A stretch of DNA of 64,000 nt, taken from positions 19,882 to 83,881 of the forward strand of contig CAZJAT010000005.1 in the NCBI GenBank assembly GCA_964544145.1, given 5' to 3'. The translations under genes and the position numbers were made by a program. The stretch's first letter is position 1; every line of letters begins with the position of its first letter. The notes under the pieces are model-generated. The model had not been told where the DNA came from and did no database searches. It saw nothing but the letters and a program-made list of their open reading frames with translations. Shown here piece by piece: positions 1 to 42,900 of the stretch. This stretch comes from an uncultured Bacteroidales bacterium (GTDB lineage: Bacteria; Hydrothermota; 32-111).

Positions 1-119
1 CTATGGAATATGCCGGAGGATTTGAAATTAAATTCAATAAATTCTCACTGGATTATACTTATTCTGCAACACAATATTTAAATGGTATGCATCTTGTGCA
101 ACTTAATTATAATTTCTGA
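1..119 (+). CDS. 3' end of an upstream gene, 5'-truncated by the window. The encoded C-terminus (...FSLDYTYSATQYLNGMHLVQLNYNF*) has alternating aromatic/hydrophobic beta-strand pattern and a terminal Phe, typical of an outer-membrane beta-barrel.
   Basis: Open frame from window edge to TGA at 117-119. C-terminal aromatic residue and strand-like periodicity. Confidence 0.3.
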   Translation, partial: MEYAGGFEIKFNKFSLDYTYSATQYLNGMHLVQLNYNF

Positions 120-127
120 GGTTTATT

Positions 128-2548
128 ATGAAAAGAATAATGTTGATTATCTTTACAATGATTCTTCTTCTGCAGATTTCAGCAGAAAAGATTGATATCA
201 ACAATACCAGTTTATCAGCTTTAGACACATTAATGATCCCTGATGATGTAATAAACGGAATCAAGGAATATATTGAGGAATACGGTGAGATTCAGAGTGT
301 CTATGAATTAAAAAACATAGAGGGTATTGATGATGAAACATTCGAAATACTGAAATTGAAACTGGCAATTTATCCCGATACTGCAGTTGACAGAACATCA
401 ATCTATATTATAAGACTGCAAGACAGATTGGCATCTGAGGAATCTCCAACACAGGGTGCAATTGATATATGGGAAAATATGCTTACACATAGAATGAATA
501 TTAATTCAGTTACTATGAATGAATTACTTCAGATACAGGGAGTAAATATAACAGATGCAGTTGCTATAATGAAAACCAGAAACTCTTTGGGTGATTTCAC
601 TTATGATACACAGATAAGAAGGTCGCCCGGCTTGACTTATTATGCATGGTCACAATTGAGAAATTATATTACATATGAAGAGCCTTCCTCAGATTGGGAA
701 TTCTCAGGTTATGTGAGAAGTAATATGAATTTCACAAATGATGACACTTATAATTACACATCATATACAGGATTGAAGTATTTGCTTTCAGCAGCAGCAT
801 ATCAATTATCTGTTTCAGCACCCGATTCTACCAATATTAGGGATCTCCTTCTTGATGCCGGTGTGAGCAGTGAAGATGTTGAGACAATGCGTGAAGATAT
901 GTTAAGTCAATATGAACAATTGGATAATTATGAAATGGATGGTGATTTTTCCAACAAATTCAGATTGAATTTCGGTAAATATATCAATGCCGGAGGTGTT
1001 ATTGATAAAAACGCAGGTATTGAGGAACTTCAATATAAGGGTTATGTAAATTTTACTAACCTGGGTTTTATTGATAATATTTATTTGGGAAATTACAGGG
1101 TATCAATTGGTCAAGGACTTGTGATGGATAACACAGATGAATACAGAGCAAGACGGTTTGATATAATAAAAGGTTTATTCCCCGATGTGACATCAACGGA
1201 GGGAAACAAATTGACCGGTATGGCTATTGACGGCAATATAGACAGATTCAATTATCTTTTCTTCGGTTCACAGGAAAAAAGAAATGCTGTTTTGAATTCT
1301 GACGGTACAGTCAATATGCTTATCCTGAATAATACAATATTTTCTGAATTCAAAGATAAGCTGGAAGAGAGAATGTTCGGCGGAAGATTTGCTTTTGATC
1401 TTGGAGGACTGGGTTTCCTGCCTCTATCTACACAGATTGGAGTTAGCGGTTTTCGTTCAGCATACAGCAGAACATTCATGATTGACACACTGATGATTGA
1501 TATACCGTTTGATAAAGACAATATAAGCACACCTGTATATACCCAGTCATTCACAGGGAATACAAGGGATGTTATAGGCATTGATTTCAGAACAGATTTC
1601 AAGAATATCTCATTTGAAGGAGAGGCATCAAAACAGGATGATGCTTATGCATATGTTGTCCGCAGTGACCTGATATTTGCAAATTTCTATTTGAAGACGA
1701 TTTTCAGGCATTATGATGCGGGTTATGATAATCCATATGCCAGGCCTTTATCAGAGCAGAGCAGATTTGATGATACTACATTTGAGAAGGAATACAGGTT
1801 GCTTAATCCTCTATTCTCTATGATTGTGGATGACCCGAGACCAAAACCTGAAGAGGGGATATATTTTGAAACAAGATTCAGAATAACAGATAAATTCACA
1901 ATAACAAAGGCATATCTTGATCTTTGGAAAACGCTTGATTACAATATGCATAATTACAGGTTTCAAGGAGAGCTTGAGTATAGACCGGTATTTCCAATCA
2001 GAATACGTCTAAAACAGAAGATTCAAGAAAAAAATCTTTATAAGGTTGTTCATTCAACTACATCTTTTACTTCTGAGACGACATTGAGGGTTTTTGCAAT
2101 ACTGTCCAATAATGACTATATTAATTTTGAAGCAAGGTATGGAAAGGTTGATTTGACAACCAATCAGGGGCTTGCGGATGATTATGTCATTGACGGTACT
2201 TATGTTAATGCATCATTCGAACACAGGATAACAGATTATTTTTCAGTGCTTGGAGGATTTGCGACTTGGAAAACCAATGGCATGAGTCAATGGATTTTCG
2301 AAGATACTGGTATTGATTTCCTCTATGGAGACGGGCAGAAATATTATATTACAATGATAGACCGTATTTCCGAAAATGTTTCCATGAGAGCAAAAGCATC
2401 GATGAATTATCAGGATATCCCGTTTTTTGGGATATATAATCCTAATTCTACATTTAGATATGAAAACGGTGATTTTATTTATATAAGAGATTTTGCTGAA
2501 TACAGCCAGTTATTTAATTTGTCTGTCCAGCTTGATATAAGATGGTAG
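128..2548 (+). CDS. Secreted/outer-membrane protein: signal peptide, two tandem ComEA-type helix-hairpin-helix DNA-binding modules, then a ~630-aa beta-rich C-terminal domain ending in Trp (probable OM beta-barrel).
   Basis: N-terminus MKRIMLIIFTMILLLQISAEK looks like a signal peptide. Residues ~25-80 (INNTSLSALDTL...INGIKEYIEEYGEIQSVYELKNIEGIDDETFEILK) and ~120-170 (NINSVTMNELLQIQGVNITDAVAIMKTRNSLGDF...SPGL) each match the ComEA (HhH)2 pattern NINTAT..EL..I.GVG...A.AI..YR...G.F....L..V.GIG. The rest is rich in alternating aromatic residues and ends ...LDIRW. Confidence 0.5.
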   Translation: MKRIMLIIFTMILLLQISAEKIDINNTSLSALDTLMIPDDVINGIKEYIEEYGEIQSVYELKNIEGIDDETFEILKLKLAIYPDTAVDRTSIYIIRLQDRLASEESPTQGAIDIWENMLTHRMNINSVTMNELLQIQGVNITDAVAIMKTRNSLGDFTYDTQIRRSPGLTYYAWSQLRNYITYEEPSSDWEFSGYVRSNMNFTNDDTYNYTSYTGLKYLLSAAAYQLSVSAPDSTNIRDLLLDAGVSSEDVETMREDMLSQYEQLDNYEMDGDFSNKFRLNFGKYINAGGVIDKNAGIEELQYKGYVNFTNLGFIDNIYLGNYRVSIGQGLVMDNTDEYRARRFDIIKGLFPDVTSTEGNKLTGMAIDGNIDRFNYLFFGSQEKRNAVLNSDGTVNMLILNNTIFSEFKDKLEERMFGGRFAFDLGGLGFLPLSTQIGVSGFRSAYSRTFMIDTLMIDIPFDKDNISTPVYTQSFTGNTRDVIGIDFRTDFKNISFEGEASKQDDAYAYVVRSDLIFANFYLKTIFRHYDAGYDNPYARPLSEQSRFDDTTFEKEYRLLNPLFSMIVDDPRPKPEEGIYFETRFRITDKFTITKAYLDLWKTLDYNMHNYRFQGELEYRPVFPIRIRLKQKIQEKNLYKVVHSTTSFTSETTLRVFAILSNNDYINFEARYGKVDLTTNQGLADDYVIDGTYVNASFEHRITDYFSVLGGFATWKTNGMSQWIFEDTGIDFLYGDGQKYYITMIDRISENVSMRAKASMNYQDIPFFGIYNPNSTFRYENGDFIYIRDFAEYSQLFNLSVQLDIRW

Positions 2549-3717
2549 GAGGAAAAATGAAAAAATTAATATTATCAATAGCACTTATTAGTGTCTCTTT
2601 GTTCGCTTTCAGTTATGGACTTATCAATACAGAAGAAATTACAGGAGACATTGTTGCGCCTCTTTCTGCTTTTTCAGGCGGAGCAGGCAATGTGGTATTC
2701 ATCAGTGACCCTGTGATGAATCCTGCTTTAAGAAAAACTGGTGAAAGTTATTTCATACAGCTGGGTTTTGGAGGTTCACAATTAAGGGAAACAAGAACAC
2801 AGTATGTATTTGATTCATATGACAACAATATAGGCGAAAAGACCATATATGAAAACAGTTATTTTTATGGTGAACCCTATCTGATGGCAGCTTATATTCC
2901 GCTGGCATCATTTGGTGTTTATCTTGGTTATGAAAATCTGTATTCAAAGGATTACAATTATGATAAAATATACAGGGATGATTATTATGTCACACTATTC
3001 TCCGAGAATTACCAAATGGCAGGAAATGTAAATGCATATTTTTTGTCAGTATCATATAAATGGAATGGTCTCACAATTGGGGGAAATTTTTCAATAATGC
3101 AGGGTGATGCAACGACATCGTATTCCATTGTATATGTTGACCCCTCTTATGTGGATTCAACAATGAATGTTGTAGATCAATATTCCGGTTTGAAGGGAGG
3201 ATTTGCATTGTCATATGAATATGATGATTATGCAGCAACTGTGTTCTATCATATTCCCACAATATTAACGGATGAACGTTCTATCGATATTATTGCATCT
3301 GACACAACATTCGCAGCCAGCGAGCTGGATGGATTCTTGCCCACTGTTTTTGGAGGCGGGTTCACATACACTCCATCAAATATCAGGCCTGTCACTCTGA
3401 TGCTTGAAGCAATCTACGAAAGGTGGAGCGAATTAAATGGTGCATTTGCAGAGTATAATGATGTAATCAAATATCACCTTGGAATTAAACATAAGATGAG
3501 AAAAGATTTCTCAATGTTATATGGGATTCTTTATGAACCATATAGAAAAAATAATCACATTGCAGATGTAGGGTTCACTTTAGGTGCAGGTTATGAAATC
3601 AATAATATTGAATTCATGCTGTCTTCTCAATATGTGCAGAATCAATATGTTGATTCAGGCATTAATTATACGAATAGATATATCAAACTGAATGCTGATG
3701 TTGGAATAACATTTTAA
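2542..3717 (+). CDS. Outer-membrane beta-barrel protein with signal peptide, FadL/TodX/PorV-like (NPA-containing N-terminal motif). Translationally coupled to the upstream gene by a 7-nt overlap.
   Basis: Signal peptide MKKLILSIALISVSLFAFS; motif SGGAGNVVFISDPVMNPAL resembles the FadL/PorV N-terminal signature; aromatic-rich strands; C-terminal ...VGITF. Confidence 0.4.
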   Translation: MVGGKMKKLILSIALISVSLFAFSYGLINTEEITGDIVAPLSAFSGGAGNVVFISDPVMNPALRKTGESYFIQLGFGGSQLRETRTQYVFDSYDNNIGEKTIYENSYFYGEPYLMAAYIPLASFGVYLGYENLYSKDYNYDKIYRDDYYVTLFSENYQMAGNVNAYFLSVSYKWNGLTIGGNFSIMQGDATTSYSIVYVDPSYVDSTMNVVDQYSGLKGGFALSYEYDDYAATVFYHIPTILTDERSIDIIASDTTFAASELDGFLPTVFGGGFTYTPSNIRPVTLMLEAIYERWSELNGAFAEYNDVIKYHLGIKHKMRKDFSMLYGILYEPYRKNNHIADVGFTLGAGYEINNIEFMLSSQYVQNQYVDSGINYTNRYIKLNADVGITF

Positions 3718-3728
3718 TAGGAAATAAT

Positions 3729-4307
3729 ATGAAAAGAATTTTATTAATTTTCGCAGTTCTTCTAATATGCATGTCTGTTACGGCTGATGATATTATTCCC
3801 TTTTACAATGATTGTGAAGGGGTTGCAGTTATCAATAAGAGAGATTATGTACCCAATGTAATCCAGCTGTTTGATAATGCTGAGAAAACAATTCATGCAG
3901 TAATATACCAGACAAGATATTATGAGGGATATCCTGACGGAACAAATCGTCAAATGTATAAAGCTATGTTCAGGGCTGTCGAACGAGGTGTCGAGGTCAG
4001 TGTCATTGCAGATCAATCATCATGGAATACATCTTCAACCCTTAAAAATGAGGAATTTGGTAAATTTATGGAAGAGAATGGGGTTAATGTATTCTATGAA
4101 CCGGCTGATAAAACAACACATTCAAAAATAATCATTGTGGATTCCCTATACACTGTTGTGGGATCCACCAATTGGTCATTTTATGCTTTGGAGAAAAATG
4201 ATGAGAGTGCAGTGATTGTCAAATCTGCTTTATTGGCATCAGATTATGAGGACTTCTTTTATAATTTGCTGGAATTTTCAACCGAAGAATTGACAATTCT
4301 GCAATAA
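3729..4307 (+). CDS. Secreted phospholipase D-superfamily protein with a single HKD motif (Nuc-endonuclease-like PLD domain).
   Basis: Signal peptide MKRILLIFAVLLICMSVTA. Perfect HxK(x)4D(x)6GSxN motif: HSKIIIVDSLYTVVGSTN. Size (192 aa) matches Nuc-type single-HKD proteins that dimerise to form one active site. Confidence 0.75.
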   Translation: MKRILLIFAVLLICMSVTADDIIPFYNDCEGVAVINKRDYVPNVIQLFDNAEKTIHAVIYQTRYYEGYPDGTNRQMYKAMFRAVERGVEVSVIADQSSWNTSSTLKNEEFGKFMEENGVNVFYEPADKTTHSKIIIVDSLYTVVGSTNWSFYALEKNDESAVIVKSALLASDYEDFFYNLLEFSTEELTILQ

Positions 4308-4316
4308 GGAGCAAAT

Positions 4317-4907
4317 ATGAAATATTTATTCTCAATAATCATTATTACATGTATGGCCGCATTTATTTCTGCAGAAAATACTGTTAATGAGAAAGGTTTG
4401 GAATATTATAAAGTAGAAGGTGTTTATCCTGTAAATAACAGGGATTATGCACCCAATATGATAAAACTTTTCAATAGTGCACAAAGCACAATACATATTT
4501 TTATGTTAGAAGGCGGTTATTATCCGAATTATCCCACAGGAGTTAACAGACAGCTATACACAGCATTGTTTGATGCTGTAGCGAGGGGGGTTGATGTTAA
4601 GATTATTCTTGATCAGGCAGGATATAATCCGGGTCAGTCAATGAGGAATCTTGAATTAGGGGAATTCCTCCGTTCCGGGGGGGTTGATGTGTATTATGAC
4701 AGCCCTGAGACGACTGTACACAGCAAGACATTAATAATTGACTCTATTTACACTATTGTAGGTTCAACAAATTGGTCTTACTGGGCACTGGATAAAAATA
4801 ATGAATGTTCAGTGATTGTCAAGTCAGCAGATGTGGCATATGAATATGAAAAATATTTCGCTGACATTATGAAAGAATCTCATTCTAAAATGACTGTCAT
4901 CGAATAG
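4317..4907 (+). CDS. Secreted phospholipase D-superfamily protein with a single HKD motif; paralog of the preceding gene (~50% identical by eye).
   Basis: Signal peptide MKYLFSIIIITCMAAFISA. HKD motif HSKTLIIDSIYTIVGSTN. Collinear similarity with the 3729-4307 product (NRDY.PN.I.LF..A..TIH...YYP.YP.G.NRQ.Y.A.F.AV.RGV.V..I.DQ). Confidence 0.75.
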   Translation: MKYLFSIIIITCMAAFISAENTVNEKGLEYYKVEGVYPVNNRDYAPNMIKLFNSAQSTIHIFMLEGGYYPNYPTGVNRQLYTALFDAVARGVDVKIILDQAGYNPGQSMRNLELGEFLRSGGVDVYYDSPETTVHSKTLIIDSIYTIVGSTNWSYWALDKNNECSVIVKSADVAYEYEKYFADIMKESHSKMTVIE

Positions 4908-4916
4908 GAGGCATAG

Positions 4917-5840
4917 ATGAAAAAAACAATAATCGGGTTTATTATAATAATTATTGCAATGCCTCTGATTTCACTTGACCTTATTTTACTCCATACAAAT
5001 GATATTAGAGATGTTTTTCAGGCAAGAGGCGCCACATTTATTAATCCTGATTTCCCGCCCATGTTGGGAGGTGTCTATTCCTTTGCGACTGCTGTGAAAT
5101 GGGAACAGGAAGATGCCGAAAAAGCCGGAAACATAATACTGCTTATGGATTCAGGTAATTTCACTGTGAAACATATTGAAGAGGATTCTATCACAATGGA
5201 CAAATCGGTAGATATCTTTAATTATCTTCATTATGATTGTGTCAATCTCGGTATTGATGAAATATCATCAGGATTTCACTTTATTGAAAAAAATATGAAT
5301 CGTTTCGAAATGCCTCTGCTTCTATCAAATATTAAACCAAAAGATAAAAATGTGCAGTTAAATACAAGGGACTATGTTATATTCAATGAAAAAGGTGTAA
5401 GAATAGGTGTTTTCGGTTTAACAACGGAATATGCGGTATTTGATTTACGAAGACATATTCTAAAAACTGTAGACATTGAACGTGAAATTCAGAAAGCAAA
5501 AATTCTTGTAAATGAATTGAAGGCTAACAGATGTGATGTCATTATCGGGCTTACGTCAATTGGTTTTGAACATGATATGAAATTGGCAGATGAAGTGCCT
5601 GGTATTGATGTGATACTATGCGGTTATGAAGGAAGAGGTATGAGAAATGCTATTGAAAGTCCCTTGAATCACACTATAATATTCAGGGGATATGGAGAAT
5701 TATCTTCGTATGATAAAATTGTTCTTGAACTTGATGAGATAAATAATATTTCCGGATATAAAGCGGAATCAGTTACAATCTTTGAGGAAGCATTTCCTTC
5801 TGATCCGGGAATGGAAGAAATTATGAGCAAATACGAGTAA
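4917..5840 (+). CDS. Membrane-anchored/secreted homolog of the 5'-nucleotidase (UshA/CpdB) N-terminal metallophosphatase domain. Most metal-ligand His/Asn are substituted and the C-terminal substrate-binding domain is absent, so this is a probable pseudo-enzyme.
   Basis: Collinear blocks with UshA: LILLHTND (cf. LTILHTNDHHG, HHG missing), IILLMDSGNF (cf. LLLSGGD), LGIDEIS (cf. IGNHEFD), MPLLLSNI (cf. FPLLSANI), RIGVFGLTTEY (cf. KIAVIGLTTDD), DVIIGLTSIGF (cf. DIIIAATHMGH), VILCGYEG (cf. MIVGGHSQ). N-terminal hydrophobic segment. Confidence 0.55.
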   Translation: MKKTIIGFIIIIIAMPLISLDLILLHTNDIRDVFQARGATFINPDFPPMLGGVYSFATAVKWEQEDAEKAGNIILLMDSGNFTVKHIEEDSITMDKSVDIFNYLHYDCVNLGIDEISSGFHFIEKNMNRFEMPLLLSNIKPKDKNVQLNTRDYVIFNEKGVRIGVFGLTTEYAVFDLRRHILKTVDIEREIQKAKILVNELKANRCDVIIGLTSIGFEHDMKLADEVPGIDVILCGYEGRGMRNAIESPLNHTIIFRGYGELSSYDKIVLELDEINNISGYKAESVTIFEEAFPSDPGMEEIMSKYE

Positions 5841-5855
5841 GCACTAGGAGGTCTT

Positions 5856-7352
5856 ATGGCAGAAAAAGTAAAAAATTATATTGACGGTCAATGGGTTGAT
5901 GCGAAAAGCGGAGAGACATTTGAAACAAGGATACCTGCAAAATGGGATGAAGTCCTTGCCATTGTATCCAAATCAGGAAAGGAAGATACTGATGAGGCAG
6001 TGAAAGCTGCAAAAAAGGCATTTAAAAAATGGAGCAAATTACCTGTTGCAAAGAGAGGAGAACTCTTAGGCAGAGTTGGTGATTTAATGGTGAAAAAGAA
6101 AGAGGAACTTGCTCAGCTTATGGCAAAGGAAATGGGAAAGGTTATTGCAGAAGCAAGAGGTGATGTACAGGAAGGTATTGATACCGCCTATTATGCATTT
6201 GGAGAGGGCAGACGTTTTTTCGGTAAAACATCTCCTTCAGAACTGCCCAATAAGGTAAATATCACATTTCTCAGACCTGTCGGTGTTGCGGGCCTAATTT
6301 GTCCTTGGAATTTCCCCATTGCAATACCTACATGGAAGATGTTCCCGGCTTTGCTTTCAGGCAATACTATTGTAATAAAACCAGCCAGTGATACACCTAT
6401 GTTAGTGGCAAAATTGTTCGAAATAATGATAGAGGCCGGTTTCCCGCAGGGTGTTATTAATATGGTAAATGGTCCGGGTTCAGCAGTAGGCAATGCTCTT
6501 CTTGAGAATACTGATGTCGGTGTCATATCATTCACCGGATCATCCGCTGTAGGCAAGCATATTGCTTCAGTGGGGGGCAAAAGTCTTAAAAAGGTATCAT
6601 TAGAATTAGGCGGAAAGAATGGCCAGATTGTTATGGATGATGCTGACATTGAACTGGCTGTTGATGGTGCTCTTTTTGGTGCATTCGGAACAGCAGGTCA
6701 GCGATGTACAGCTACCTCAAGAATAATAATTCATGAGGATGTTCATGATGAGTTTGTTCAGAAACTCAAAGATAGAGCTGAGAAAATGAAAATCGGAATG
6801 CCGTGGAAAGCTGAAACAGATATCGGTCCGGTCATCAATGAAGCAGCTTTGAATAAAATTCATTCATACACTGAAATTGGCAAGAATGAAGGGGCAACAC
6901 TTGTAACAGGAGGAGAACCTTATACTGAAGGTGAATGTGCCAATGGATGGTTTTACAGACCTACAATATTTACAGGTGTGAAACCCGGCTCACGATTAGA
7001 GCAGGAAGAGATATTCGGTCCCATTTTGTCGATTATCAAAGTTAAATCATTTGATGAGGCAATTGACGTTATAAATGATGTTGAATATGGTCTTTCATCA
7101 TCAATTTACACAAGAGATATAAATAAAGGCATGAAAGCTGTTGAGGATATTGATGCGGGTATTACCTATATCAATGGTCCCACTATTGGTGCAGAGTGCC
7201 ATATGCCTTTCGGCGGCGTCAAAGCAACAGGTAATGGTCACAGAGAAGGCGGATGGACAGTTTATGAGATTTATACGGAACAAAAAACCGTTTATATTGA
7301 TTATTCAGGACATTTGCAGAAGGCACAGATAGATACATCAATTGAGAAATAA
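5856..7352 (+). CDS. NAD(P)-dependent aldehyde dehydrogenase family protein
   Basis: 498 aa; ALDH hallmarks ELGGKN, catalytic Cys in GQRCTA, EEIFGPIL, FTGSSAVGKHIA; SD AGGAGG upstream. Confidence 0.85.
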   Translation: MAEKVKNYIDGQWVDAKSGETFETRIPAKWDEVLAIVSKSGKEDTDEAVKAAKKAFKKWSKLPVAKRGELLGRVGDLMVKKKEELAQLMAKEMGKVIAEARGDVQEGIDTAYYAFGEGRRFFGKTSPSELPNKVNITFLRPVGVAGLICPWNFPIAIPTWKMFPALLSGNTIVIKPASDTPMLVAKLFEIMIEAGFPQGVINMVNGPGSAVGNALLENTDVGVISFTGSSAVGKHIASVGGKSLKKVSLELGGKNGQIVMDDADIELAVDGALFGAFGTAGQRCTATSRIIIHEDVHDEFVQKLKDRAEKMKIGMPWKAETDIGPVINEAALNKIHSYTEIGKNEGATLVTGGEPYTEGECANGWFYRPTIFTGVKPGSRLEQEEIFGPILSIIKVKSFDEAIDVINDVEYGLSSSIYTRDINKGMKAVEDIDAGITYINGPTIGAECHMPFGGVKATGNGHREGGWTVYEIYTEQKTVYIDYSGHLQKAQIDTSIEK

Positions 7353-7357
7353 TAAAT

Positions 7358-7382
7358 GGGGAAATTTAATTTCCCCTTTTTT
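7358..7382 (+). terminator. Rho-independent terminator after the aldehyde dehydrogenase gene
   Basis: GGGGAAATT-T-AATTTCCCC perfect 9-bp inverted repeat followed by TTTTTT, 5 nt after the stop codon. Confidence 0.7.
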
Positions 7383-7394
7383 CTGGAGTGAATT

Positions 7395-7874
7395 ATGAAA
7401 TTAAAGAATACAGTTCTTTTTTTACTTATAGTATTAATATTTACAGGATGTGAGATATTACCCTTTTTACCGACAGCAGATATTACATTGACATTCAATC
7501 CTAATCCTGCTTATGACCCGTATTATACGAGCACCTATGGATGGACTTGGGATGTAAATGTCCGTATAAGGGAAACAGAAAACATTAATATTACATTAGG
7601 TAATTATGGACCCGGCAATGCTGCATGCATCTCCAAATTCCTAACAGCTAATAATCAAGTGGTCAGCACAGATATTTTCTATGCAAATGACATTGAGGAA
7701 TTTTTTGGAACATTGGAGATTTCCGGAAATGCCAGTATATCACATGATGCGACATTCTCTTCATTTACCTATGATGAAGGCAAATTTGTTGAAACATATT
7801 ACGGTATTGATGAAAATGGTGTTATTGTATCATGCACCGATACATTGATACTCATCAATAATACAAAGAAATGA
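7395..7874 (+). CDS. Hypothetical lipoprotein (lipobox-like LIFTGC)
   Basis: N-terminal MKLKNTVLFLLIVLIFTGCE resembles a signal peptidase II site; no recognisable domain. Confidence 0.45.
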   Translation: MKLKNTVLFLLIVLIFTGCEILPFLPTADITLTFNPNPAYDPYYTSTYGWTWDVNVRIRETENINITLGNYGPGNAACISKFLTANNQVVSTDIFYANDIEEFFGTLEISGNASISHDATFSSFTYDEGKFVETYYGIDENGVIVSCTDTLILINNTKK

Positions 7875-23729: not shown

Positions 23730-26700
23730 ATGAATAAAATACCCAAAGCCAAGACTGTAAGAATTGGTTTGAGTTTTGTAAATCCACTTGTAATAATACT
23801 ATCCATTTTATTATCATTTACCTATATTTATGCAGATGATTATGTTCTGAAATCAGGTTGTGAATATGATTATCCGCCTTATTGTTTTGTTAATGAGGAT
23901 TCAATAGCAGATGGGTTTTCTGTAGAACTGCTTCAAGCAGTTATAGATGCGATGAATCTTAAGGTTTCCTTTAAAACATCAAATTGGAATGAATTGAAGA
24001 GTGAATTGGAGCAAGGAAAACTTGATGTGCTTCCCCTTGTGGGAAGAACACCTGAACGTGAGCATTACTTTGATTTTACAATACCCTATTTTCCTATGCA
24101 TGGTGCTATTGTTGTGCGTAAGGATAATCAAAGTATAAAGGTATTAGATGATATTAATGGAAAAAAAATCGCTGTTATGAGCGGGGATAATGCACAGGAA
24201 TTTGTGCAAAGTATTGATATAAATTGTGATATTATCACAACCCCCACATTCAAGGATGCTCTTAAAGATTTATCTGAGGGGAAATATGATGCAGTAATTA
24301 TACAGAGGCTATTAGCGATACAATTAATAAATGAATTAGGTATCAAGAATCTGAGAATTATTGAACCGCCTTTAGTTGAATTTAAGCAGAGTTTCTGTTT
24401 CGCAGTTCATGAAGGCAATAAGGAATTGTTGGCAAAACTTAATGAGGGATTGGCAATTGTTATTGCTGACGGTACTTATAGAATGCTTCACACAAAATGG
24501 TTTGCTTCTATACACTCCATGAAGAATCAGTCAATACTTGTCGGTTGTGATTATAATTATCCCCCATGGGAATTTCTTGATGAAAACGGAAATCCTGCAG
24601 GTTATAATGTTGACCTTACTAAAGCCATTGCCTTGGAAATGAATCTCAATATTGATTTCTATGTTTCTGACTGGGATGATGTTATCATGAGACTTAAAAA
24701 TGGTGACATAGACATTATACAGGGAATGTTCTACTCTGAGGAAAGAGCAAAAGTATTTGATTTGTCAAACCCTCACTTTGTAATCACTCAGACAGCCGTA
24801 ATTAGGGAAGATCATGAGAGAATCAATAGTGAAGAGGAATTACAATACATGACAGTGATTGTAGAAAAAAGCGATATTATGAATGAATATTCATTAAAAC
24901 ATGATATTGACAGTATTATTGAAGTAGAAACAACAGAGGAAGCCCTGCAGCTGCTGTCATTAGGAATCGGAGATTGCGTGCTTATGGGAAGAATACAGGC
25001 TCAGTATTTAATTGACAAAAATGAGTTGACAAATCTGGTAATCAGTGATTTGAGGATTGCATCATATGAATATTGTTATGCTGTATTTAAGGGTGATGAC
25101 AATATGCTGTCCATTTTTGATGAAGGATTGAGATTTATCAAGGAATCTGGCAAATACAGGGAATTACGAAACAAGTGGTTTGGTGTTTATGACAGAGATA
25201 ATTATTTTTCTATAATAAAGAATTCAATTATAATTTTGGTATTATTGATAATAATAATCATTGCAATAATGACTTGGTCATTTTCTCTCAGGCAAATGGT
25301 CCGAAGACGTACCATGGAGCTGGAAGTAGAGATTGATGAGCATAAAAGAGCTGAATCTGCATTAAAGGATGAAGAAAATCTACTTGCAGCTGTTATGAAT
25401 AATATTCCCGTTATGTTGATACAATACAGCAGCAATACTGATATCCGTATTTTAAATAATGAATTTGAGAAAAAGACAGGATGGAAGAATGAGGATTTGC
25501 AGGGCATTGATTTAATGTCTGAATTGTTTCCGGATGATAATTACAGAAGGGATGCAATTAAATATATGAGCAGTACATCGCTGAAATGGAAGGAATTTAC
25601 GCTTTTAACCAGAGATAGAGGGATGATAGATACAGAATGGTGCAGTGTAGAACTAGACAATAATGTGTATATTGGAATTGGGATTGATATCACTGAAAGA
25701 AAGAAGAATGAAGAACAGCTGAGAAAGATCGACAGACTTGATTCTCTTGGAATACTTGCAGGAGGCATTGCCCATGACTTCAATAATCTGCTTACCGGAA
25801 TTATAGGTAATCTCACTTTAATTTACTCAGACATTAAGGGTAAGAGTGAACTGGAGAGTGCTATTGAAGATGCTCTAAAATCATCAAACAGTGCAAGAGA
25901 CTTAACTAAGCAATTGCTTACATTCTCAAGTGGAGGAAGACCTGTAAAGAAAATACTGTTAATGAAAGAGATTATCAAAGATGCAGCTAGATTTGTTATG
26001 AGCGGTTCCAATAATAATTTAATAATGGATATTGCAGATAATTTGTGGAATGCAGAAGCAGATGAGTCGCAGATAAAACAGGTTTTACAAAATATTATAA
26101 TGAATGCCAATCAGTCTATGCCTTCAGGAGGCAATATAGATATATATGCTAAGAATGTGTATTTTGATAAAGTGGATTATCATATAAATAAAGGAAATTA
26201 TATTGAAATATGTATTTCAGATTCAGGTATAGGAATGGAACCGGATTTGATTGCAAAAGTTTTTGATCCATATTTTACAACTAAACAGGGTGGGAGCGGA
26301 TTGGGGCTTGCTATTGTCAGTTCCATTATTAAATCACATTCCGGATATATTGATATTAAGAGTGCTCCCGGAAAGGGTACTGCTGTAACAGTATATTTGC
26401 CGGCAACACTGAAAAGTGCAGATGAAATTGAAGAATTATCTATTATGGATAATACGAAGAGACAAGGACGTATACTCGTAATGGATGATGAGGATATGAT
26501 TTTAAAATTGGTGACAAAAATGCTTACAAGGGCAGGATACAGTGTTGAAACTGCGAAGAATGGGCAGGATGCTATCAATAAATATAGTGAAAGTATGAAT
26601 AATAACCAAAAATTCAATGCTGTTATACTGGATTTGACCATACCGGGGGGTATGGGAGGAAAGGAAACGGCTCAGCATATTCTTGATTTGGACATAAATG

Positions 26701-26849
26701 CCGTTCTTATTGTTTCAAGCGGTTATTCAAGTGATGATACAGTATCAAATTACACTGATTTCGGCTTTAAGGGTATGGTATTAAAACCATATCATATGCA
26801 GGATATGCTCAATGAAATCGAACGAGTACTTTTTAAAGAAAATAAATAA
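23730..26849 (+). CDS. Hybrid sensor histidine kinase/response regulator with two periplasmic solute-binding (SBP_bac_3-like) domains, TM helix, PAS, HisKA, HATPase_c and C-terminal REC domain
   Basis: Signal/TM at N-terminus; two repeats of the D..LL.......N.......W..... SBP pattern; TM IIILVLLIIIIIAIM; H-box GIAHDFNNLLTGIIGN; G-boxes DSGIGME/GGSGLGLA; REC ILVMDDEDMILKL...DLTIPGGMGG...KPY. Confidence 0.85.
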   Translation: MNKIPKAKTVRIGLSFVNPLVIILSILLSFTYIYADDYVLKSGCEYDYPPYCFVNEDSIADGFSVELLQAVIDAMNLKVSFKTSNWNELKSELEQGKLDVLPLVGRTPEREHYFDFTIPYFPMHGAIVVRKDNQSIKVLDDINGKKIAVMSGDNAQEFVQSIDINCDIITTPTFKDALKDLSEGKYDAVIIQRLLAIQLINELGIKNLRIIEPPLVEFKQSFCFAVHEGNKELLAKLNEGLAIVIADGTYRMLHTKWFASIHSMKNQSILVGCDYNYPPWEFLDENGNPAGYNVDLTKAIALEMNLNIDFYVSDWDDVIMRLKNGDIDIIQGMFYSEERAKVFDLSNPHFVITQTAVIREDHERINSEEELQYMTVIVEKSDIMNEYSLKHDIDSIIEVETTEEALQLLSLGIGDCVLMGRIQAQYLIDKNELTNLVISDLRIASYEYCYAVFKGDDNMLSIFDEGLRFIKESGKYRELRNKWFGVYDRDNYFSIIKNSIIILVLLIIIIIAIMTWSFSLRQMVRRRTMELEVEIDEHKRAESALKDEENLLAAVMNNIPVMLIQYSSNTDIRILNNEFEKKTGWKNEDLQGIDLMSELFPDDNYRRDAIKYMSSTSLKWKEFTLLTRDRGMIDTEWCSVELDNNVYIGIGIDITERKKNEEQLRKIDRLDSLGILAGGIAHDFNNLLTGIIGNLTLIYSDIKGKSELESAIEDALKSSNSARDLTKQLLTFSSGGRPVKKILLMKEIIKDAARFVMSGSNNNLIMDIADNLWNAEADESQIKQVLQNIIMNANQSMPSGGNIDIYAKNVYFDKVDYHINKGNYIEICISDSGIGMEPDLIAKVFDPYFTTKQGGSGLGLAIVSSIIKSHSGYIDIKSAPGKGTAVTVYLPATLKSADEIEELSIMDNTKRQGRILVMDDEDMILKLVTKMLTRAGYSVETAKNGQDAINKYSESMNNNQKFNAVILDLTIPGGMGGKETAQHILDLDINAVLIVSSGYSSDDTVSNYTDFGFKGMVLKPYHMQDMLNEIERVLFKENK

Positions 26850-26880: not shown

Positions 26881-29580
26881 ATGGAAAGGAAATTTCTATT
26901 AATTATAATGTTTTTGTTTACTGCAGCATTCTGCATCAGCGGATTTGACATGAGCGGGCTTTTTAACAATGAATATGCAAATTCAATGCCTGATACTGCA
27001 ACTAATTTACAGATTCATACATTCACAAATTATTATCCCGTTGATTCTGATATCCTTATGTTTCTATATGCCAGAAGAGGAAATGGTGTTACAGATACAA
27101 TGTACTCAGGAACGGGCTTTGTTAAAGTGTTTGAAGAACTCAGAGACAGTTCATTTACGGCATTTCTTTTCGGACCAGAAGATTTTTATCCTATTATCAA
27201 CAATGGCGAAAGTTTTTTCTACTTCAGTAATTCTGATACTGAACTTGTATCAATAAGAATTGAAGATTCACTAAATATTATTAAACCGTCATTTCACACT
27301 AACATTCAATTCAGGTTAAAATCAGATACTGCGACTCAATTAGCAGGTATTGATGATACATTGATGACCATTGATATGCCATTACAGTTGTTTATCAGAT
27401 TTGAGGATGACAGTGAAAGAATCTTTTTTGATTATGCTCCTATAATGAGTGACAGTACAATGAAGGTGACTGTTGTAAGCAATGAGGACTCTACTGTTAC
27501 ATTATCATCATTGGGTTCAACATCACATTCGGAGATTTATCCCATGCTTGTCAATGGAGGATATATTGTGCAGATAGCATCTAGCATAGTTAGAGATTTT
27601 GATATAATCTTTGAACCATTATTGACCAGTCCTCCTTTAAATGCAGATACATTTCATTTTGTGTGTTTGCCTCAATCCGAATCGCCTCTGCTTATGACAT
27701 TTTCATTCACAGGATATAATCAGACAATTGGCAAGGAAAAGGGTCTCATTATGCTTAATATGGGTGATAATGGTCCTATTTCATCGAATAATTCATCAAT
27801 ACTAAATGGTGAACTTTATGATTTAACAGGTAAAGGCGGTATCTTATCCCCTCTTTCAGCTGTAACAATGACATCCGGTATTGCTCAATATGCTATTAAC
27901 TGTGATTCTGTAAATGAATGTCTTGTATTGAAAACAGAGGAAAGTGGATTGCCTGATTTAGTGAATTATACACCATTTGTGACAGTTAAATTTCTTCCGC
28001 TTGGTGAAGCTGTAATGTCAAAGGCAATTGTACAGGCAATTGCTGAAATAGGTGATACCATCACAGGTAAATTATATATAAGTGATGCATATGAAACAGT
28101 GGATAGTTCTTATAATGGGTATGCGGAATTTGATGTAAATATTAATGATTACAGTATACTTGACCCAATTATTCCTGTATATGATGATTATATACCGATT
28201 ATTAATGGATATGGTGATTTTAGAATTTACTATCCATATGCTGGATCTACAAGTGTGACATATCTGGATGGGGAAAAAGGCGGATTTACAGATGCATATT
28301 TCTCTGCAAATGGTTTTGACGGTGAAGAGATATCAATTATATGGATGTATGCAACAGATTCAGGGTGTGACAGATTTGAGATGTATGAGGATGAAGTTAT
28401 TTATGCTGTAGGTAACAAGGCAATAATAACTGTTGCAGCTATGAGTGGAGATTCAATAAGCAGAAATTACAATAATTATGCTGATATTTCTCTATCAGGA
28501 ACTGCGGTATCCGAAATTGATTCTGTTTATTTGGGAAGCGATGGTATAGGTTTATTCAGTGTAATTGATACTTCATCAGGTGCTGTTTATATTACTGTTA
28601 GTGACAGCATATATTCTGTAACAGATACCATTTACTTCAGTGACAGTGATGAAGCTGCATTTATTGTTTGTGCCGGACCTGATACATCTTTAATGAATGA
28701 GGATTATGATATCACATTTTTTGCTATGACCACTGATTTCAGAAATGATACAATGTATAATGGTACTATGACATTGATGATTAATGATGATAAAGGCGAT
28801 ACGAGCAGCCTGTCTCTGTCTCATAATCCCGATGCAGTATCAATAGTCAAAGGAAAGGCTATTGTCACTTTTTCTAATTCAGATGCTGAAAGGATAAGTT
28901 TTGATGGATACAGTGTTTCCGGGTCCGATACAATATTGGTTGAAGCAAAGGAATTAATTGCACAATATCTATTTTATGTTGATGAAAAAACTGTTATTAA
29001 TGAGATAGAAGATACACTGTTTGTGCATATTGCAGATGCGGATAGTATTATTGAGTCGTATAATACTGTAATTGACAGTATCTATGTAGAAGAAGAATTT
29101 GATAATACATCTGTAAGCATAACAAGCACTTATAATCCTATTACAGTAAACAATGGTACCGGATTTATCGCAATAAGCGATACTGAGAGTGAAAATGTGA
29201 AGATATATGCAGAATACGATGATACACTTATTAATGGAAACAATATTTACAGGATGATATTTGACCTATCCTCATTAACAGGGATAAAAAACCGGTCATT
29301 GATACCTGAAGTATCCTATTTAGAATCATCTATTTTAAATAGAGATTTTGTTCCTGTAAAATTCGGCATTGCAAAGGATTCCTACGCAAATTTAAGTATA
29401 TATGATAAGACGGGCCGCATGATAAAAAATCTATATAAGGATTATTTGAGCAGGGGACATTATATGGTTAAATGGAATGGTAATGATTCAAATAATAATT
29501 CTGTCCCCAATGGAATATATTTTATGATACTTAATATTGATAATGACATTTTGTCAAAAAAGATTATTATTACAAGATAA
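26881..29580 (+). CDS. Large secreted protein with a type IX secretion system C-terminal sorting domain (Por_Secre_tail-like); function unknown
   Basis: Signal peptide MERKFLLIIMFLFTAAFCISG. The last ~80 aa (NLSIYDKTGRMIKNLYKDYLSRGHYMVKWNGNDSNNNSVPNGIYFMILNIDNDILSKKIIITR) match the T9SS CTD pattern. The body is Ser/Thr/Asp-rich and beta-like. Confidence 0.65.
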   Translation: MERKFLLIIMFLFTAAFCISGFDMSGLFNNEYANSMPDTATNLQIHTFTNYYPVDSDILMFLYARRGNGVTDTMYSGTGFVKVFEELRDSSFTAFLFGPEDFYPIINNGESFFYFSNSDTELVSIRIEDSLNIIKPSFHTNIQFRLKSDTATQLAGIDDTLMTIDMPLQLFIRFEDDSERIFFDYAPIMSDSTMKVTVVSNEDSTVTLSSLGSTSHSEIYPMLVNGGYIVQIASSIVRDFDIIFEPLLTSPPLNADTFHFVCLPQSESPLLMTFSFTGYNQTIGKEKGLIMLNMGDNGPISSNNSSILNGELYDLTGKGGILSPLSAVTMTSGIAQYAINCDSVNECLVLKTEESGLPDLVNYTPFVTVKFLPLGEAVMSKAIVQAIAEIGDTITGKLYISDAYETVDSSYNGYAEFDVNINDYSILDPIIPVYDDYIPIINGYGDFRIYYPYAGSTSVTYLDGEKGGFTDAYFSANGFDGEEISIIWMYATDSGCDRFEMYEDEVIYAVGNKAIITVAAMSGDSISRNYNNYADISLSGTAVSEIDSVYLGSDGIGLFSVIDTSSGAVYITVSDSIYSVTDTIYFSDSDEAAFIVCAGPDTSLMNEDYDITFFAMTTDFRNDTMYNGTMTLMINDDKGDTSSLSLSHNPDAVSIVKGKAIVTFSNSDAERISFDGYSVSGSDTILVEAKELIAQYLFYVDEKTVINEIEDTLFVHIADADSIIESYNTVIDSIYVEEEFDNTSVSITSTYNPITVNNGTGFIAISDTESENVKIYAEYDDTLINGNNIYRMIFDLSSLTGIKNRSLIPEVSYLESSILNRDFVPVKFGIAKDSYANLSIYDKTGRMIKNLYKDYLSRGHYMVKWNGNDSNNNSVPNGIYFMILNIDNDILSKKIIITR

Positions 29581-39478: not shown

Positions 39479-39930
39479 AAAAAGTAAAAAATAAATCCTA
39501 TTCCTGCATTAAAATCCAGAGAAGTAGCAGGAATAACATCTAATATGGGTGAGCATTCAATGAACAGTTCAATAGGAATGTCAGGGAATTGCAATCCTGC
39601 TCCTGCAGTAAATTTTACTCCCACATTGGTGTTATTGTTTGTTTTGATTCTGATTCCCGGTCCTGTATAGAAAAAAAGAGGTAATGTGATTTCTCCATCA
39701 TCGCTTTTCACGGAATAATAGAAATTGTAAGAATAACCAAAACTTCCGTAAACCATACTAGCCGGAATATCCCACGCAATAATCGAATTAATGCTGTTAT
39801 TCTGATTGAGATTCACTTTTAATTTTATGCCTGTTGGATTACCTGCATAAATGCCTGCCCCGAAATGATTGGATGCATGCGATGTTAAAAAGACAATTAG
39901 AGAGAGGATGATGATTACAGCTCGTTTCAT
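39475..39930 (-). CDS. Small outer-membrane beta-barrel-like protein with signal peptide
   Basis: MKRAVIIILSLIVFLTSHA; Gly/aromatic-rich alternating strands; C-terminal FIFYFL. Confidence 0.4.
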   Translation of the reverse strand: MKRAVIIILSLIVFLTSHASNHFGAGIYAGNPTGIKLKVNLNQNNSINSIIAWDIPASMVYGSFGYSYNFYYSVKSDDGEITLPLFFYTGPGIRIKTNNNTNVGVKFTAGAGLQFPDIPIELFIECSPILDVIPATSLDFNAGIGFIFYFL

Positions 39931-42900
39931 TATTTTAACTCCATTTTGCTATTTATTTGTTCCAGAATTGAATCACAGAATGTAATAATGTTTTTTTTAT
40001 CAATATCATGTGCAATTGTCAGAGCTTCATTGGCAAATTTTATCGCGCTCCCGAATTCATTCATAATCATTTTCAATTCAGCTCTTTTTGAAAGAAAATG
40101 GGAGAGAGGGAATCTTGCATTCATTTTTCTAATAATGGATATGCATTTTGCAAAATATTTATCAGCCTCACTATTTTTTCTCTGAAGTTTGTACAGTTCT
40201 GCCATATTGCCTAAATCAATTGCTTCAGACCACTTATTACCAATTTGTCTATCAATAATAAGAGCATCTTTATAATATTTCAAGGATTTTGCGTATTGAC
40301 CTTCTGTTGCATAGAAATTTGCAATATTGCCAAGTACTATTGTCTCATTTTCAAGATTGTTAACATCCTTATCAATTTCAAGAGCTTTAAAATAATATTC
40401 TAAAACTCTATCTTTCTCGCCCATATCATTGTACACTTGTCCCATATTACCAAGCACAATGGCTTCTGATCTCCTGTTACCGATTTTCCTGTTTATTCTG
40501 AGGGAAATGCTGTTATGATGTATACTCTGTTTAAATGACTCGCTGTTTCTATATATCAAACCGATACGCAGATGAAGTTTTGCCTGAGAGTTCAAATCAT
40601 TGCTTTTTTCAGCATCTTTCAGCGCTCTTTGATAATATTTCATTGCTCTCTGGTCATCACCCTGTCTGTAGAGCACTAAACCCATATTGGAAAATATGGA
40701 GTTTCTCAGTTTTCTGTTTTTTTCTGCATATTTCAATGCATTATTAAACTGTATTATTGCTTCATTAAAATCACCCTTATTATAATAGACAAGTCCCATA
40801 AGTTCGTAGATTTTACTCATTCCCTCAATATCATTTTTCTTTTTGTAAAGGTTAAATGAGCTGTTATACTGAACAATTGCTTTCTTATATTTACCAAGCG
40901 ACCAGTATATTTCTCCAAGTGTTTTATAGGCATTTGCACATAAAAGAATATTTCTCTTGCATAAACGAATAGCTTTTTGAAGCACCTTTACACCCTCATC
41001 ATAGTTGGCAGTGTGCAGCATAATATTGCCGAGATTGATATATGCATGAGCTTGCTGTGATTTTGAAATGTCAAGTTTCAGTAATTCATATATAAGTTTG
41101 ATGGCAATTTCATTCGAGTATGTGCTCATGTATCGTTCAATTGCCAATTTTAAATAGTGCATCTTTTTATTCTTAATATTTGCCTGTTTATAGTGATAGT
41201 ATAATATCTCATAATATGGGCTAAGATCATTGCTGTATTGCTTTTCATAAAGCGAGGCAATCCGAGAATGCAGTTTTTTCAATTCATCTTCAAACTGCAT
41301 CTTATAGGCAATCTCATGTAATAATGTATGTCTGAAAACACCAAGATTTTTCGAAATAACAGATATAATTTTATTCCTTTCTCCCTCAGTGAGGATTTTC
41401 CCGATATTCTTTCCAACAAGTAAATTCAACAGAATTATTTCAAACTCTTTCCCGAAAACCGATGCTTTCTTTATTCCTTCTCTTGTAACAGCTGATAAAG
41501 AGTCCAGCCGTGATACAATTAATCTGTCAATGCTTGACGGTAATTCATAATCCGCTTTGGATAAATTAATTGAATTGCCATTATGCTCAATTAAATCATT
41601 GTTGGCAAGATGTATTGTGATTTGCTCAAGGAACAAAGGATTGCCTTCAGATTTTTCCCATAATAACTGAAGTAAGGTATCTGATGGTTTTTTTTCAAAA
41701 AAAGCAGTAATAAATAATTTTACTCCTTTAAAATTGAAATTATTCAATGGAATACTTATATGCTTCAAACGAATTCTGTCCGTTACGCGATTCTTCTCTC
41801 TGAAAACAATAATAAGACCTGCATTTAATATGTTATCCTGGAAAGCGTAGTTGAGAAAATCTATGGTTTCCTCATCTGCCCACATCATATCGTCAAATAC
41901 AAATATCTGTCTTCTCAGACTGCATTCTTTAATTAATATTTGGCGAATAATGTAGAATGTGGTTTCCTGCATTTCCTTTCCTGATATATGTTTTAATATA
42001 CCCTCATCTGCTAGTGAAAAAAAGTGATGTATGTATTTGGAATATGTCTCATACTGTTCACTGAAATGTGATGCAAGATATTTATCAGCTTTTGATTTCT
42101 TTCTATCCCTGTCATCATAGTATCCAAAGTCCATTATTGATGCTATGACTTGTTTGATAGGTGACATAGGTTCAAACAAAACTGAATCACATAAACCGTA
42201 ATGAAATAATATTTTACTGTTTTGTAATGTATGGTATACAATGCGGGTTTTCCCGATACCGCTTTCACCCTCAATATAAATGATTGGGGATTTACTTTTT
42301 TTAAATGTATTTTCAATATAAGTTATTATCCTATTTTGTTCATTTTCCCTTGATACGAAAGGAGAAGCAAAATCAATAACCCTGTTTTTCTTGGATTCAA
42401 TACTATATAGACTGATTTTTTTCTTTTTTCCCTTTACATTGAAATAATTCTCAAATGCAAATTCAAATGTTCTGCTCTCCTGTTTAACACGTTCACTTAT
42501 ATATATTTTCCCTTTGCTAAGACATGATATCCTTGATGCAGTATTGACTATATCACCAAGAACAGTATATTCCATCCAATTTTTACTCCCAATAAAACCT
42601 GTATAGGATATACCATAATCAATGCCTGCTGAAATATTCAAATGTTTAAATTCATCTCCAATCTTTACAGCCATATTCAAGGCATTTTCAATCATATTTT
42701 CTGATGCAAATGGAGCACCGAATATTACAAGTATGATTCCGCCTTTTTCTGTAAAATCAACCTTATTGAAATATCCGTTCATTTCAATGGAATATTCCAT
42801 TATACTTGTTATAAGTCTATTCAGCTCATTTCTCTCAATATCATTGCTGAAATTAAAGAAGAGAGGGACAGTTTTTCTGAACTCACCCTTTATGCTGAGT

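Follow-up and report, generated by a model that had tools for sequence, protein, structure and literature searches.

A ComEA-type helix-hairpin-helix outer-membrane barrel and its conserved gene neighbourhood: a candidate DNA-acquisition cassette of uncultured bacteria

To our knowledge, only two routes by which DNA crosses the bacterial outer membrane are understood: the type IV pilus/secretin route, which works together with a free ComEA protein, and the TonB-type DdbCD route of the Bacteroidota. In the model for V. cholerae, ComEA, a helix-hairpin-helix (HhH) protein, is said to hold DNA in the periplasm. The present work concerns a gene of a 64,000-nt stretch of DNA from an uncultured bacterium (contig CAZJAT010000005.1; hereafter, the window is this whole stretch). 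The gene (128..2548, + strand) encodes a protein, here termed the HhH-barrel, in which two ComEA-type modules are followed by a large predicted outer-membrane barrel. An earlier note on the window had described this open reading frame (ORF), and it is borne out, with 806 aa on the + strand. It is proposed that the HhH-barrel is the core outer-membrane part of a conserved cassette that acquires extracellular DNA independently of pili and of TonB, a proposal to which we give an even chance of being right.

The closest described systems contain the domain DUF5689. The report on the ddbABCDEF locus of B. thetaiotaomicron assigns this domain to DdbD, describes the locus as needed for the depletion of exogenous DNA, and proposes DdbD as the surface DNA-binding partner of an outer-membrane transporter (PMC12478041). 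In Riemerella anatipestifer, the same role has been proposed for the DUF5689 protein RA0C_RS04920, and RA0C_RS04915/04920 are essential for natural transformation (PMC8459023). Transformation of Riemerella also needs a separate HhH protein, RA0C_RS02645, whose HhH domain lies at 236-301 and for which three HhH domains are mentioned (PMC8459023). The nutritional and the transformation systems are evolutionarily related according to the Ddb authors (PMC12478041). The locus described here would best be read as a variant of these outer-membrane DNA-acquisition systems, recently described in Bacteroidota.

The HhH-barrel has a four-part architecture: (i) a signal peptide; (ii) two HHH_3 modules; (iii) a β-barrel of ~620 aa; and (iv) a C-terminal β-signal. 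The signal peptide reads as type I, without a lipobox Cys. In the AlphaFold2 model of the protein (31 homologs; mean predicted local distance difference test score (pLDDT) 84.5, predicted TM-score (pTM) 0.81), residues 2-17 of this peptide form a helix, and pLDDT is low at 16-18. The model continues with two modules of four helices each, which a helical linker connects, and then with ~24-26 long β-strands. The N-terminal signal peptide, together with a C-terminal β-signal that ends in Trp, are the outer-membrane hallmarks of the protein.

When the whole protein is compared with Pfam, HHH_3 (PF12836; gathering score 27 bits) is matched in two stretches (E 1.3e-14, 54.5 bits), and in separate scans residues ~19-80 and residues ~120-182 each exceed the gathering score (Table 1). 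The NCBIfam models of ComEA match both stretches below their cut-offs, TIGR00426 with 40.8 bits (53.1 needed) and TIGR01259 with 38.5 bits (152 needed). Modeled alone, the N-terminal 172 residues reach a pLDDT of 81, and their best Foldseek match is Geobacillus ComEA (8dss_B; 63 columns, root-mean-square deviation (RMSD) 1.8 Å, 33% identity), at an E-value of 0.013 that is weak because the HhH domain is small. Further matches of this model are PsbU, the HhH domain of Tex, the ComEA-related Thermus protein 2duy (RMSD 2.2 Å), KIF22, and TEFM. Among solved structures, the best sequence match is the tandem HhH pair of EEPD1, both modules being covered (the single sequence gives 3e-4 and the family profile 3e-16); the profile also finds the ComEA structures 8dss (1.9e-7) and 8dfk (4.9e-7), whose matches cover module 1. 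The ComEA-type N-terminus claimed by the earlier note is therefore supported, since two (HhH)2 domains are modeled and the best solved match is ComEA. Structure prediction, which that note had named as a check, returned the HhH fold, and the idea survives.

The same note had stated that the ComEA pattern is reproduced almost position for position, which holds in part. The fold-defining residues are kept; the hairpins are substituted, with P-D-D, G-I-D, G-V-N, and G-L-T in place of Gly-hydrophobic-Gly, and the two modules are not detectably similar in pairwise alignment. Their pairwise Smith-Waterman score is 23, compared with 22.4 ± 4.2 for shuffled sequences. A recent internal duplication was considered and ruled out, as this similarity is not significant; judged by their sequences, the two modules are old, diverged copies. 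Module 2 has a net charge of 0 to +7 across the family and carries a conserved R-D-L-R-R patch and the invariant R178. The linker between the modules has a higher column conservation (0.59) than the modules themselves (0.52 and 0.53), with modeled helices at 91-101 and 109-120, and its residues E105 and D113 are nearly invariant in the family.

The residual ~620 aa are 15.8% aromatic and end in LSVQLDIRW, in which hydrophobic residues alternate in the manner typical of the β-signal of an outer-membrane protein (OMP); the family consensus of this terminal signal is QLDxRW. From the letters, ~630 aa of aromatic-rich sequence ending in Trp had been taken as a putative outer-membrane barrel. This assignment agrees with the confident model (the pLDDT given above) and with structural matches that are outer-membrane barrels only, and, a soluble non-barrel fold having been the alternative to check, a large barrel was modeled and the idea survives. 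In the Foldseek comparison of the model with the PDB, all 50 matches listed are outer-membrane barrels (E 2.5e-7 to 1.7e-5), including SlpA, FimD/PapC, FadL, MtrB, AlgE, LptD, and TonB-dependent receptors, at TM-scores of 0.2-0.33. Because all TM-scores are 0.33 or lower, no solved barrel family is a specific relative. Residues 190-806 have zero Pfam matches even at E≤10, and the family profile finds no barrel among the PDB sequences. The barrel represents a new family, for which there is no Pfam model, solved structure, or literature. An antiparallel barrel fold is predicted for the C-terminal part, and we infer from the model that the barrel is closed.

Two other identities for this barrel were considered. 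LptD came into question for its similar strand number and for the lptC/lptA/lptB-rpoN genes that lie upstream in close relatives; it was ruled out, as there is no match to an LptD/OstA profile, the N-terminus is HhH instead of β-jellyroll, and the lpt adjacency is absent from distant loci. Kinship of the large barrel with its FadL-like neighbors was likewise ruled out, at an hhalign probability of 1.4%.

In the model, short turns alternate with long loops, which fits an even number of strands: 24 if a conserved mini-hairpin at 721-732 counts as a loop element, and 26 otherwise. An even number would place both termini, and with them the HhH modules, on the periplasmic side. This arrangement bears on one rival explanation, in which surface-exposed HhH modules would serve as an adhesin or matrix anchor by which cells hold on to the extracellular DNA of biofilms or particles. 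The likeness of the modules to ComEA and the presence of neighboring surface proteins with LTD and Ig-like domains would suit such an adhesin. However, the gap between module 2 and the first strand of the modeled barrel is only ~8 residues long, the probable even strand number puts the N-terminus in the periplasm, and the co-encoded nucleases would destroy the very matrix to which the cell is tied. Such an adhesin is therefore regarded as very improbable.

In the family as a whole, no motif is more conserved than WKTNGMSQWIFE at 714-725, and the best-conserved barrel motifs, namely GQGLVMDNTDEY, YDNPYARPLSEQ..FDDTTFEKEYRL, and WKTNGMSQWIFE..IDFLYGDG, fall in predicted loops or in the mini-hairpin, not in membrane strands. 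The barrel model also has long, conserved non-strand segments at 327-361 and 530-574; these two loops and the linker have conservation values of 0.59-0.65, vs. 0.55 for the strands. Such high conservation is unusual among OMP loops. On this pattern of conservation, the loops and the linker point to elements that line the lumen, gate it, or contact a partner.

A word-indexed protein search found 35 homologs of 25-100% identity. The search returned the same 35 proteins when repeated with the family profile, and an exhaustive HMM search was used instead, which gave 161 cluster representatives (at the 50% identity level) at E≤1e-30, many of them full length. In a scan of species-representative genomes, 246 contained relatives. 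Of these, the best 80 belong to WOR-3, TA06, Edwardsbacteria, Cloacimonadota, Coatesbacteria, and a handful of odd bins; the host lineages are all uncultured, and the complete genomes that carry the cassette include the WOR-3 chromosomes CP070795, CP070686, and CP070802. HHH_3 is kept in every barrel-bearing variant checked. Some distant relatives have strongly canonical HhH motifs that match the HHH model PF00633, and one barrel-bearing variant adds TPR repeats. Because HHH_3 is kept across the variants checked, the fusion is old and stable, and neither an assembly artefact nor the peculiarity of a single genome. The fusion had been called unusual, which is fitting when it is compared with the characterized ComEA proteins; it is not rare, given a conserved family in 246 species-level genomes. 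A literature search found no published description of an HhH-barrel fusion.

The main evidence for function is the conserved gene neighborhood. ORFs were called in 86 loci and the neighbors grouped by jackhmmer, the denominators below being the testable loci. A small barrel protein of ~260-330 aa is encoded immediately 5' of the HhH-barrel in 54/68 loci, a large surface protein is encoded 5' of the small barrel in 37/52, and a FadL-like barrel of ~360-490 aa follows immediately 3' of the HhH-barrel in 50/75.

The gene for the large surface protein lies beyond the left edge of the window. In the closest homologous locus examined (L006, 77% identity), the upstream protein has 661 aa and covers positions 4-217 of the 217 in DUF5689. 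Across the family of this surface protein, DUF5689 is found in 24 of 38 members (best E 4e-14) and an OB-fold nucleic-acid-binding domain in 25 (1.5e-11); LTD is found in 10/38 (3.4e-17) and Big_5 in 13/38 (4.1e-48). At the C-terminus, 31/38 members have a FlgD_ig tail (4.8e-09) and 11/38 a Por_Secre_tail (1.7e-07). The N-terminal domain of the surface protein matches the N-terminal domain of 9sf8/9sf9 (1e-7), which are solved nucleases of the EEP family, and for its tail the match is the type IX secretion system (T9SS) C-terminal domain of PorU (9e-6).

The small barrel genes on both sides of the HhH-barrel are related. Only the 3' end of the upstream gene is in the window, where the frame-3 translation MEYAGGFEIKFNKFSLDYTYSATQYLNGMHLVQLNYNF* aligns to the C-termini that the L006 and L007 upstream genes encode; the gene would encode a FadL/PorV/TraF_2-like protein of ~290 aa. 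In Pfam, members of this family match TraF_2 (19/41), Toluene_X (11/41), and UPF0164 (8/41), with one match each to PorV and PorP_SprF. The downstream FadL-like barrel is homologous to its counterparts in L005 (E 2e-21) and L004 (E 3e-6), and Toluene_X is matched by 7/44 members of its family. The two flanking families are mutually paralogous (hhalign probability 98.7%), both are FadL/TraF_2/UPF0164/PorV-like, and the NPA motif is kept. The gene after the HhH-barrel had indeed been expected to encode a barrel, and it proves to be one of the FadL type. The overlap that was claimed between the two genes depends on the start codon: it amounts to 7 nt if ATG 2542 is used, and becomes a gap of 8 nt if translation starts at ATG 2557, which is preceded by the Shine-Dalgarno sequence AGGAGG and opens a signal peptide.

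The pairing of a tail-bearing cargo with a small barrel occurs a second time in some loci. In L005 (12414-14644), a PHP-domain protein of 446 aa that bears a T9SS-type tail lies 3' of a nucleotidase gene and is followed by a small FadL/PorV-like barrel; the second pair is also present in L019, L021, L025, L035, and L055. This suggests that a cargo with its own anchor barrel is a repeated module in L005-type loci.

In a distant locus (L087:4207-6929), the genes immediately 5' of the HhH-barrel encode an LTD protein of 311 aa and, separately, a multi-HhH protein of 596 aa, and an S8 peptidase and a PorP/SprF-like barrel are encoded downstream. That even this locus pairs the HhH-barrel with an LTD protein, a multi-HhH protein, and FadL-like and PorP/SprF-like barrels is counted in favor of DNA acquisition. 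In the closest relatives, L006 (2675-6134) and L001 (1616-5126), the cassette stands directly after lptC, lptA-like, lptB, and rpoN genes and an lpxL-type acyltransferase gene, a region that is not part of the window; this lpt-cluster adjacency is absent in the distant loci.

These neighbors are also the ground for a second rival explanation, that of a surface-anchoring platform. Here, the large barrel and its two FadL/PorV-like neighbors would display the T9SS-type surface protein, the HhH modules would serve for protein contacts or for periplasmic docking, as PsbU does in photosystem II, no DNA would pass, and any DNA would be handled by the surface protein and the secreted enzymes only. The PorV/PorP/FadL-like nature of the flanking barrels, the match of the upstream protein's C-terminal domain to that of PorU, and the recurrence of the cargo/small barrel pairing in L005-type loci are all consistent with a platform, as are the degenerate hairpin glycines and the acidic module 1. 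The linker and loops are, moreover, more conserved than the HhH modules, which is expected of protein interfaces. On the other hand, a platform leaves unexplained why HHH_3 is constantly retained, with canonical versions in distant relatives, and why periplasm-directed nucleases or nucleotidases are so frequently co-encoded; in addition, a barrel of 24-26 strands far exceeds the size that an anchor needs. On balance, a pure anchoring function is considered unlikely.

Downstream of the flanking barrel, the window encodes two Nuc/NucT-like proteins of the phospholipase D (PLD) family, a short protein of the UshA/5'-nucleotidase type, and an aldehyde dehydrogenase (Table 1). The first PLD protein also matches the NucT and DrmC models below their cut-offs. 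The HKD motif is intact in all 34 PLD ORFs of the locus set, and, by their sequences, the PLD proteins are putative nucleases that signal peptides direct out of the cytoplasm. Within 6 kb downstream of the HhH-barrel, 20/55 loci have a PLD gene and 41/55 a UshA/5'-nucleotidase-type gene. Among the loci listed in this count the split is complete: a short, degenerate UshA-like protein is always accompanied by PLD, and a long, intact nucleotidase (~510-560 aa) is always found in loci without PLD. Counterparts for comparison are those of L005 (10879-12417), L018, L029, L075, and L086. The gene spacing is 8-15 nt from 128 to 7352, and the transcription unit probably ends at the terminator-like hairpin that follows the aldehyde dehydrogenase gene, as read from the sequence. 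Conservation of the aldehyde dehydrogenase is limited to L001 and L006, which are close relatives, and it is doubtful whether the enzyme belongs to the system. Beyond the hairpin, positions 7395-7874 encode a 159-aa protein with a lipoprotein-like N-terminus (…LIFTGC) and no Pfam match; in L001 and L006, too, a gene for 159-161 aa follows the aldehyde dehydrogenase gene at this place.

Table 1. Positions of the cassette features in the window (nucleotides), with residue numbers (res) of the HhH-barrel where they apply
Feature	Position	Strand	Details
Upstream small barrel gene, 3' end	3..119	+	last 38 codons and stop; cut by window edge
HhH-barrel gene	128..2548	+	806 aa; signal peptide, two ComEA-type modules, large outer-membrane barrel
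Type I signal peptide	128..184	+	res 1-19; MKRIMLIIFTMILLLQISA followed by EK; from sequence
HhH module 1	185..373	+	res 20-82; HHH_3 31.0 bits alone
Acidic helical linker	374..484	+	res 83-119; family motif RLASEExPxxGAIDxWE
HhH module 2	485..676	+	res 120-183; HHH_3 33.0 bits alone; mildly basic
Barrel domain (predicted)	695..2545	+	res ~190-806; ~24-26 strands; C-terminal β-signal QLDIRW
Conserved-motif segments	1106-1210, 1715-1849, 2267-2347		res 327-361, 530-574, 714-740
Downstream FadL-like barrel	2557..3717	+	386 aa; alternative start 2542; paralogue of upstream barrel
PLD-family (Nuc/NucT-like) putative nuclease 1	3729..4307	+	signal peptide; PLDc_2 E 2.1e-21; intact HKD motif HSKIIIVDSLYTVVGSTN
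PLD-family putative nuclease 2	4317..4907	+	signal peptide; PLDc_2 E 4.4e-26; intact HKD motif HSKTLIIDSIYTIVGSTN
Short UshA/5'-nucleotidase-like protein	4917..5840	+	307 aa; NCBIfam SoxB/UshA matches 1e-19 to 1e-17, below cut-offs
Aldehyde dehydrogenase gene	5856-7352	+	terminator-like hairpin 7358-7376 follows

The enzymes bear on a third rival explanation, that of a conduit for natural transformation, by which the cassette would import intact double-stranded DNA (dsDNA) for ComEC and recombination, like the DUF5689/transporter pair of Riemerella. ComEA-type modules are hallmark competence parts, and a link to transformation has been drawn in Helicobacter for NucT, a PLD nuclease. In Riemerella, transformation cannot do without the DUF5689 protein, the outer-membrane partner of this protein, or the separate HhH protein (PMC8459023), and the evolutionary link drawn between nutrition and transformation systems in the Ddb report (PMC12478041) would also be in keeping with such a conduit. 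Yet the two intact nucleases, or the 5'-nucleotidase, in the operon point to the breakdown of DNA rather than to its preservation, and comEC, dprA, and comF were not found within the 64-kb window. A transformation conduit is held to be quite improbable, less so than the adhesin and more so than the anchoring platform.

The preferred reading, that of a cassette for the acquisition of extracellular DNA, can be laid out in four steps. First, the surface protein would capture DNA with its nuclease-type DNA-binding modules (DUF5689, OB-fold, LTD), while being held at the cell surface through its T9SS-type C-terminal domain by the neighboring FadL/PorV-like barrel; anchoring by the small barrel is proposed because the pairing of tail-bearing cargo and small barrel recurs in L005-type loci. 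Second, DNA or large fragments of it would pass the wide barrel, whose 24-26 strands are within the range of ushers and LptD. Third, the two tethered ComEA-type modules could hold the incoming DNA in the periplasm, as a built-in ratchet or for hand-off. Fourth, the PLD nucleases with signal peptides, or the intact 5'-nucleotidase in other lineages, would degrade the DNA for nutrition. The domain architecture, the family, and the conserved neighborhood are shown by the data above; that the HhH modules bind DNA and lie in the periplasm, that DNA travels through the barrel, and that the cassette serves nutrition are what we infer from these combined features. The conduit-plus-ratchet step is tentative and more doubtful than the cassette as a whole.

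Several observations weigh against this reading. Gly-hydrophobic-Gly hairpins are the DNA contacts of canonical HhH motifs, and their degeneracy is common to all 31 aligned close homologs; module 1 of the window protein has a net charge of -10, and a helical insert at 204-272 of the barrel model has one of -11. PsbU is a precedent for an HHH_3-type fold without DNA binding. Whether the lumen is open or plugged, and on which membrane face the HhH modules lie, is read from strand and loop lengths only, and no energy source (TonB box or pilus) is evident. With regard to the enzymes, all five metallophosphatase motifs of the UshA-like protein in the window (4917-5840) are substituted and its 5_nucleotid_C domain is missing, according to an alignment with the intact long versions. 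Because of these five substitutions and the missing C-terminal domain, it is probably non-catalytic, a degenerate pseudo-enzyme. Neither a PLD nor a nucleotidase gene is found within 6 kb downstream in 14/55 loci, and the L003-type clade is without the downstream barrel and without a PLD or nucleotidase gene nearby.

The remainder of the 64-kb window holds housekeeping genes, with no competence genes among them. A 1039-aa hybrid sensor kinase (23730-26849; SBP_bac_3 in two stretches, HisKA, HATPase_c, and a receiver domain) is encoded just before an 899-aa protein (26881-29580), whose sole Pfam trace is a borderline FlgD_ig-like C-terminal tail (27 bits) and which may be another T9SS-type surface cargo. 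A 1207-aa protein on the - strand (39930-43553) combines an adenylate/guanylate cyclase domain with an AAA_16 ATPase and many TPR repeats. Pfam gives no match at E≤1e-5 for three ORFs of 361-565 aa, at 43588-44673 (-), 52492-53646 (-), and 56067-57764 (+).

In sediments, digesters, and hot springs, much of the phosphorus, nitrogen, and carbon supply comes from extracellular DNA, and it is from such habitats that the hundreds of uncultured species with this family come. The cassette would be a concrete, testable candidate for DNA foraging, and possibly for gene uptake, in phyla without genetics. If the reading is true, ComEA-like modules inside a channel protein, together with a homolog of the DNA receptor of Bacteroidota, would be a third way of getting DNA across the outer membrane. 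In its full form, this would be a third kind of outer-membrane DNA translocon, in which a wide monomeric barrel takes dsDNA from a DUF5689/OB-fold receptor, transport is rectified by the tethered modules and by periplasmic degradation, and which is widespread in uncultured FCB-type phyla; we put this forward as a possibility with the balance against it. The HhH-barrel in any case defines a new barrel family without a Pfam model or solved structure.

Among the known systems, ComEA (HHH_3, TIGR00426; 8dss, 8dfk, 2duy) shares with the HhH-barrel the (HhH)2 fold and a probable periplasmic location. ComEA proteins, however, are small, soluble or anchored in the inner membrane, and have one HhH domain, whereas here two modules with degenerate hairpin glycines are fused to an outer-membrane barrel of ~620 aa. 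Human EEPD1 (PDB 9yi2) also begins with a tandem pair of ComEA-like HhH modules; in this eukaryotic, intracellular protein the pair is fused to an EEP nuclease domain, and there is no barrel. LptD, the FimD/PapC ushers, MtrB, and OmpM/SlpA, all large monomeric barrels of the outer membrane that carry a periplasmic domain at the N-terminus, are alike in overall size and strand number and take the top Foldseek ranks. They differ in that the HhH-barrel has an HhH N-terminus rather than a β-jellyroll, plug, or SLH domain, and belongs to no Pfam barrel family.

The route through the type IV pilus/PilQ secretin and free ComEA would share a proposed logic with the HhH-barrel, that of a wide outer-membrane channel and a periplasmic hold on DNA by HhH domains. 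In that route free ComEA accumulates, whereas here each barrel has two HhH modules covalently attached to it, and the locus has no secretin or pilus genes. The Ddb and Riemerella systems have in common with the present locus a DUF5689-type surface protein encoded beside an outer-membrane barrel and secreted or periplasmic nucleases in the locus; in Riemerella, an HhH protein is required in addition, where here HhH modules are part of the barrel. Their transporter is a barrel of the TonB-dependent type with a carboxypeptidase-regulatory domain (in DdbC, this domain is followed by a plug and a 22-strand barrel), and their DUF5689 protein is a lipoprotein. In contrast, Pfam scans found no match to TonB_dep_Rec, plug, or CarboxypepD_reg in the HhH-barrel or its neighbors. 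The cassette described here has an unrelated barrel family with fused HhH modules, a DUF5689 protein with a T9SS tail, two extra FadL/PorV-like barrels, and, as its enzymes, PLD nucleases or 5'-nucleotidases.

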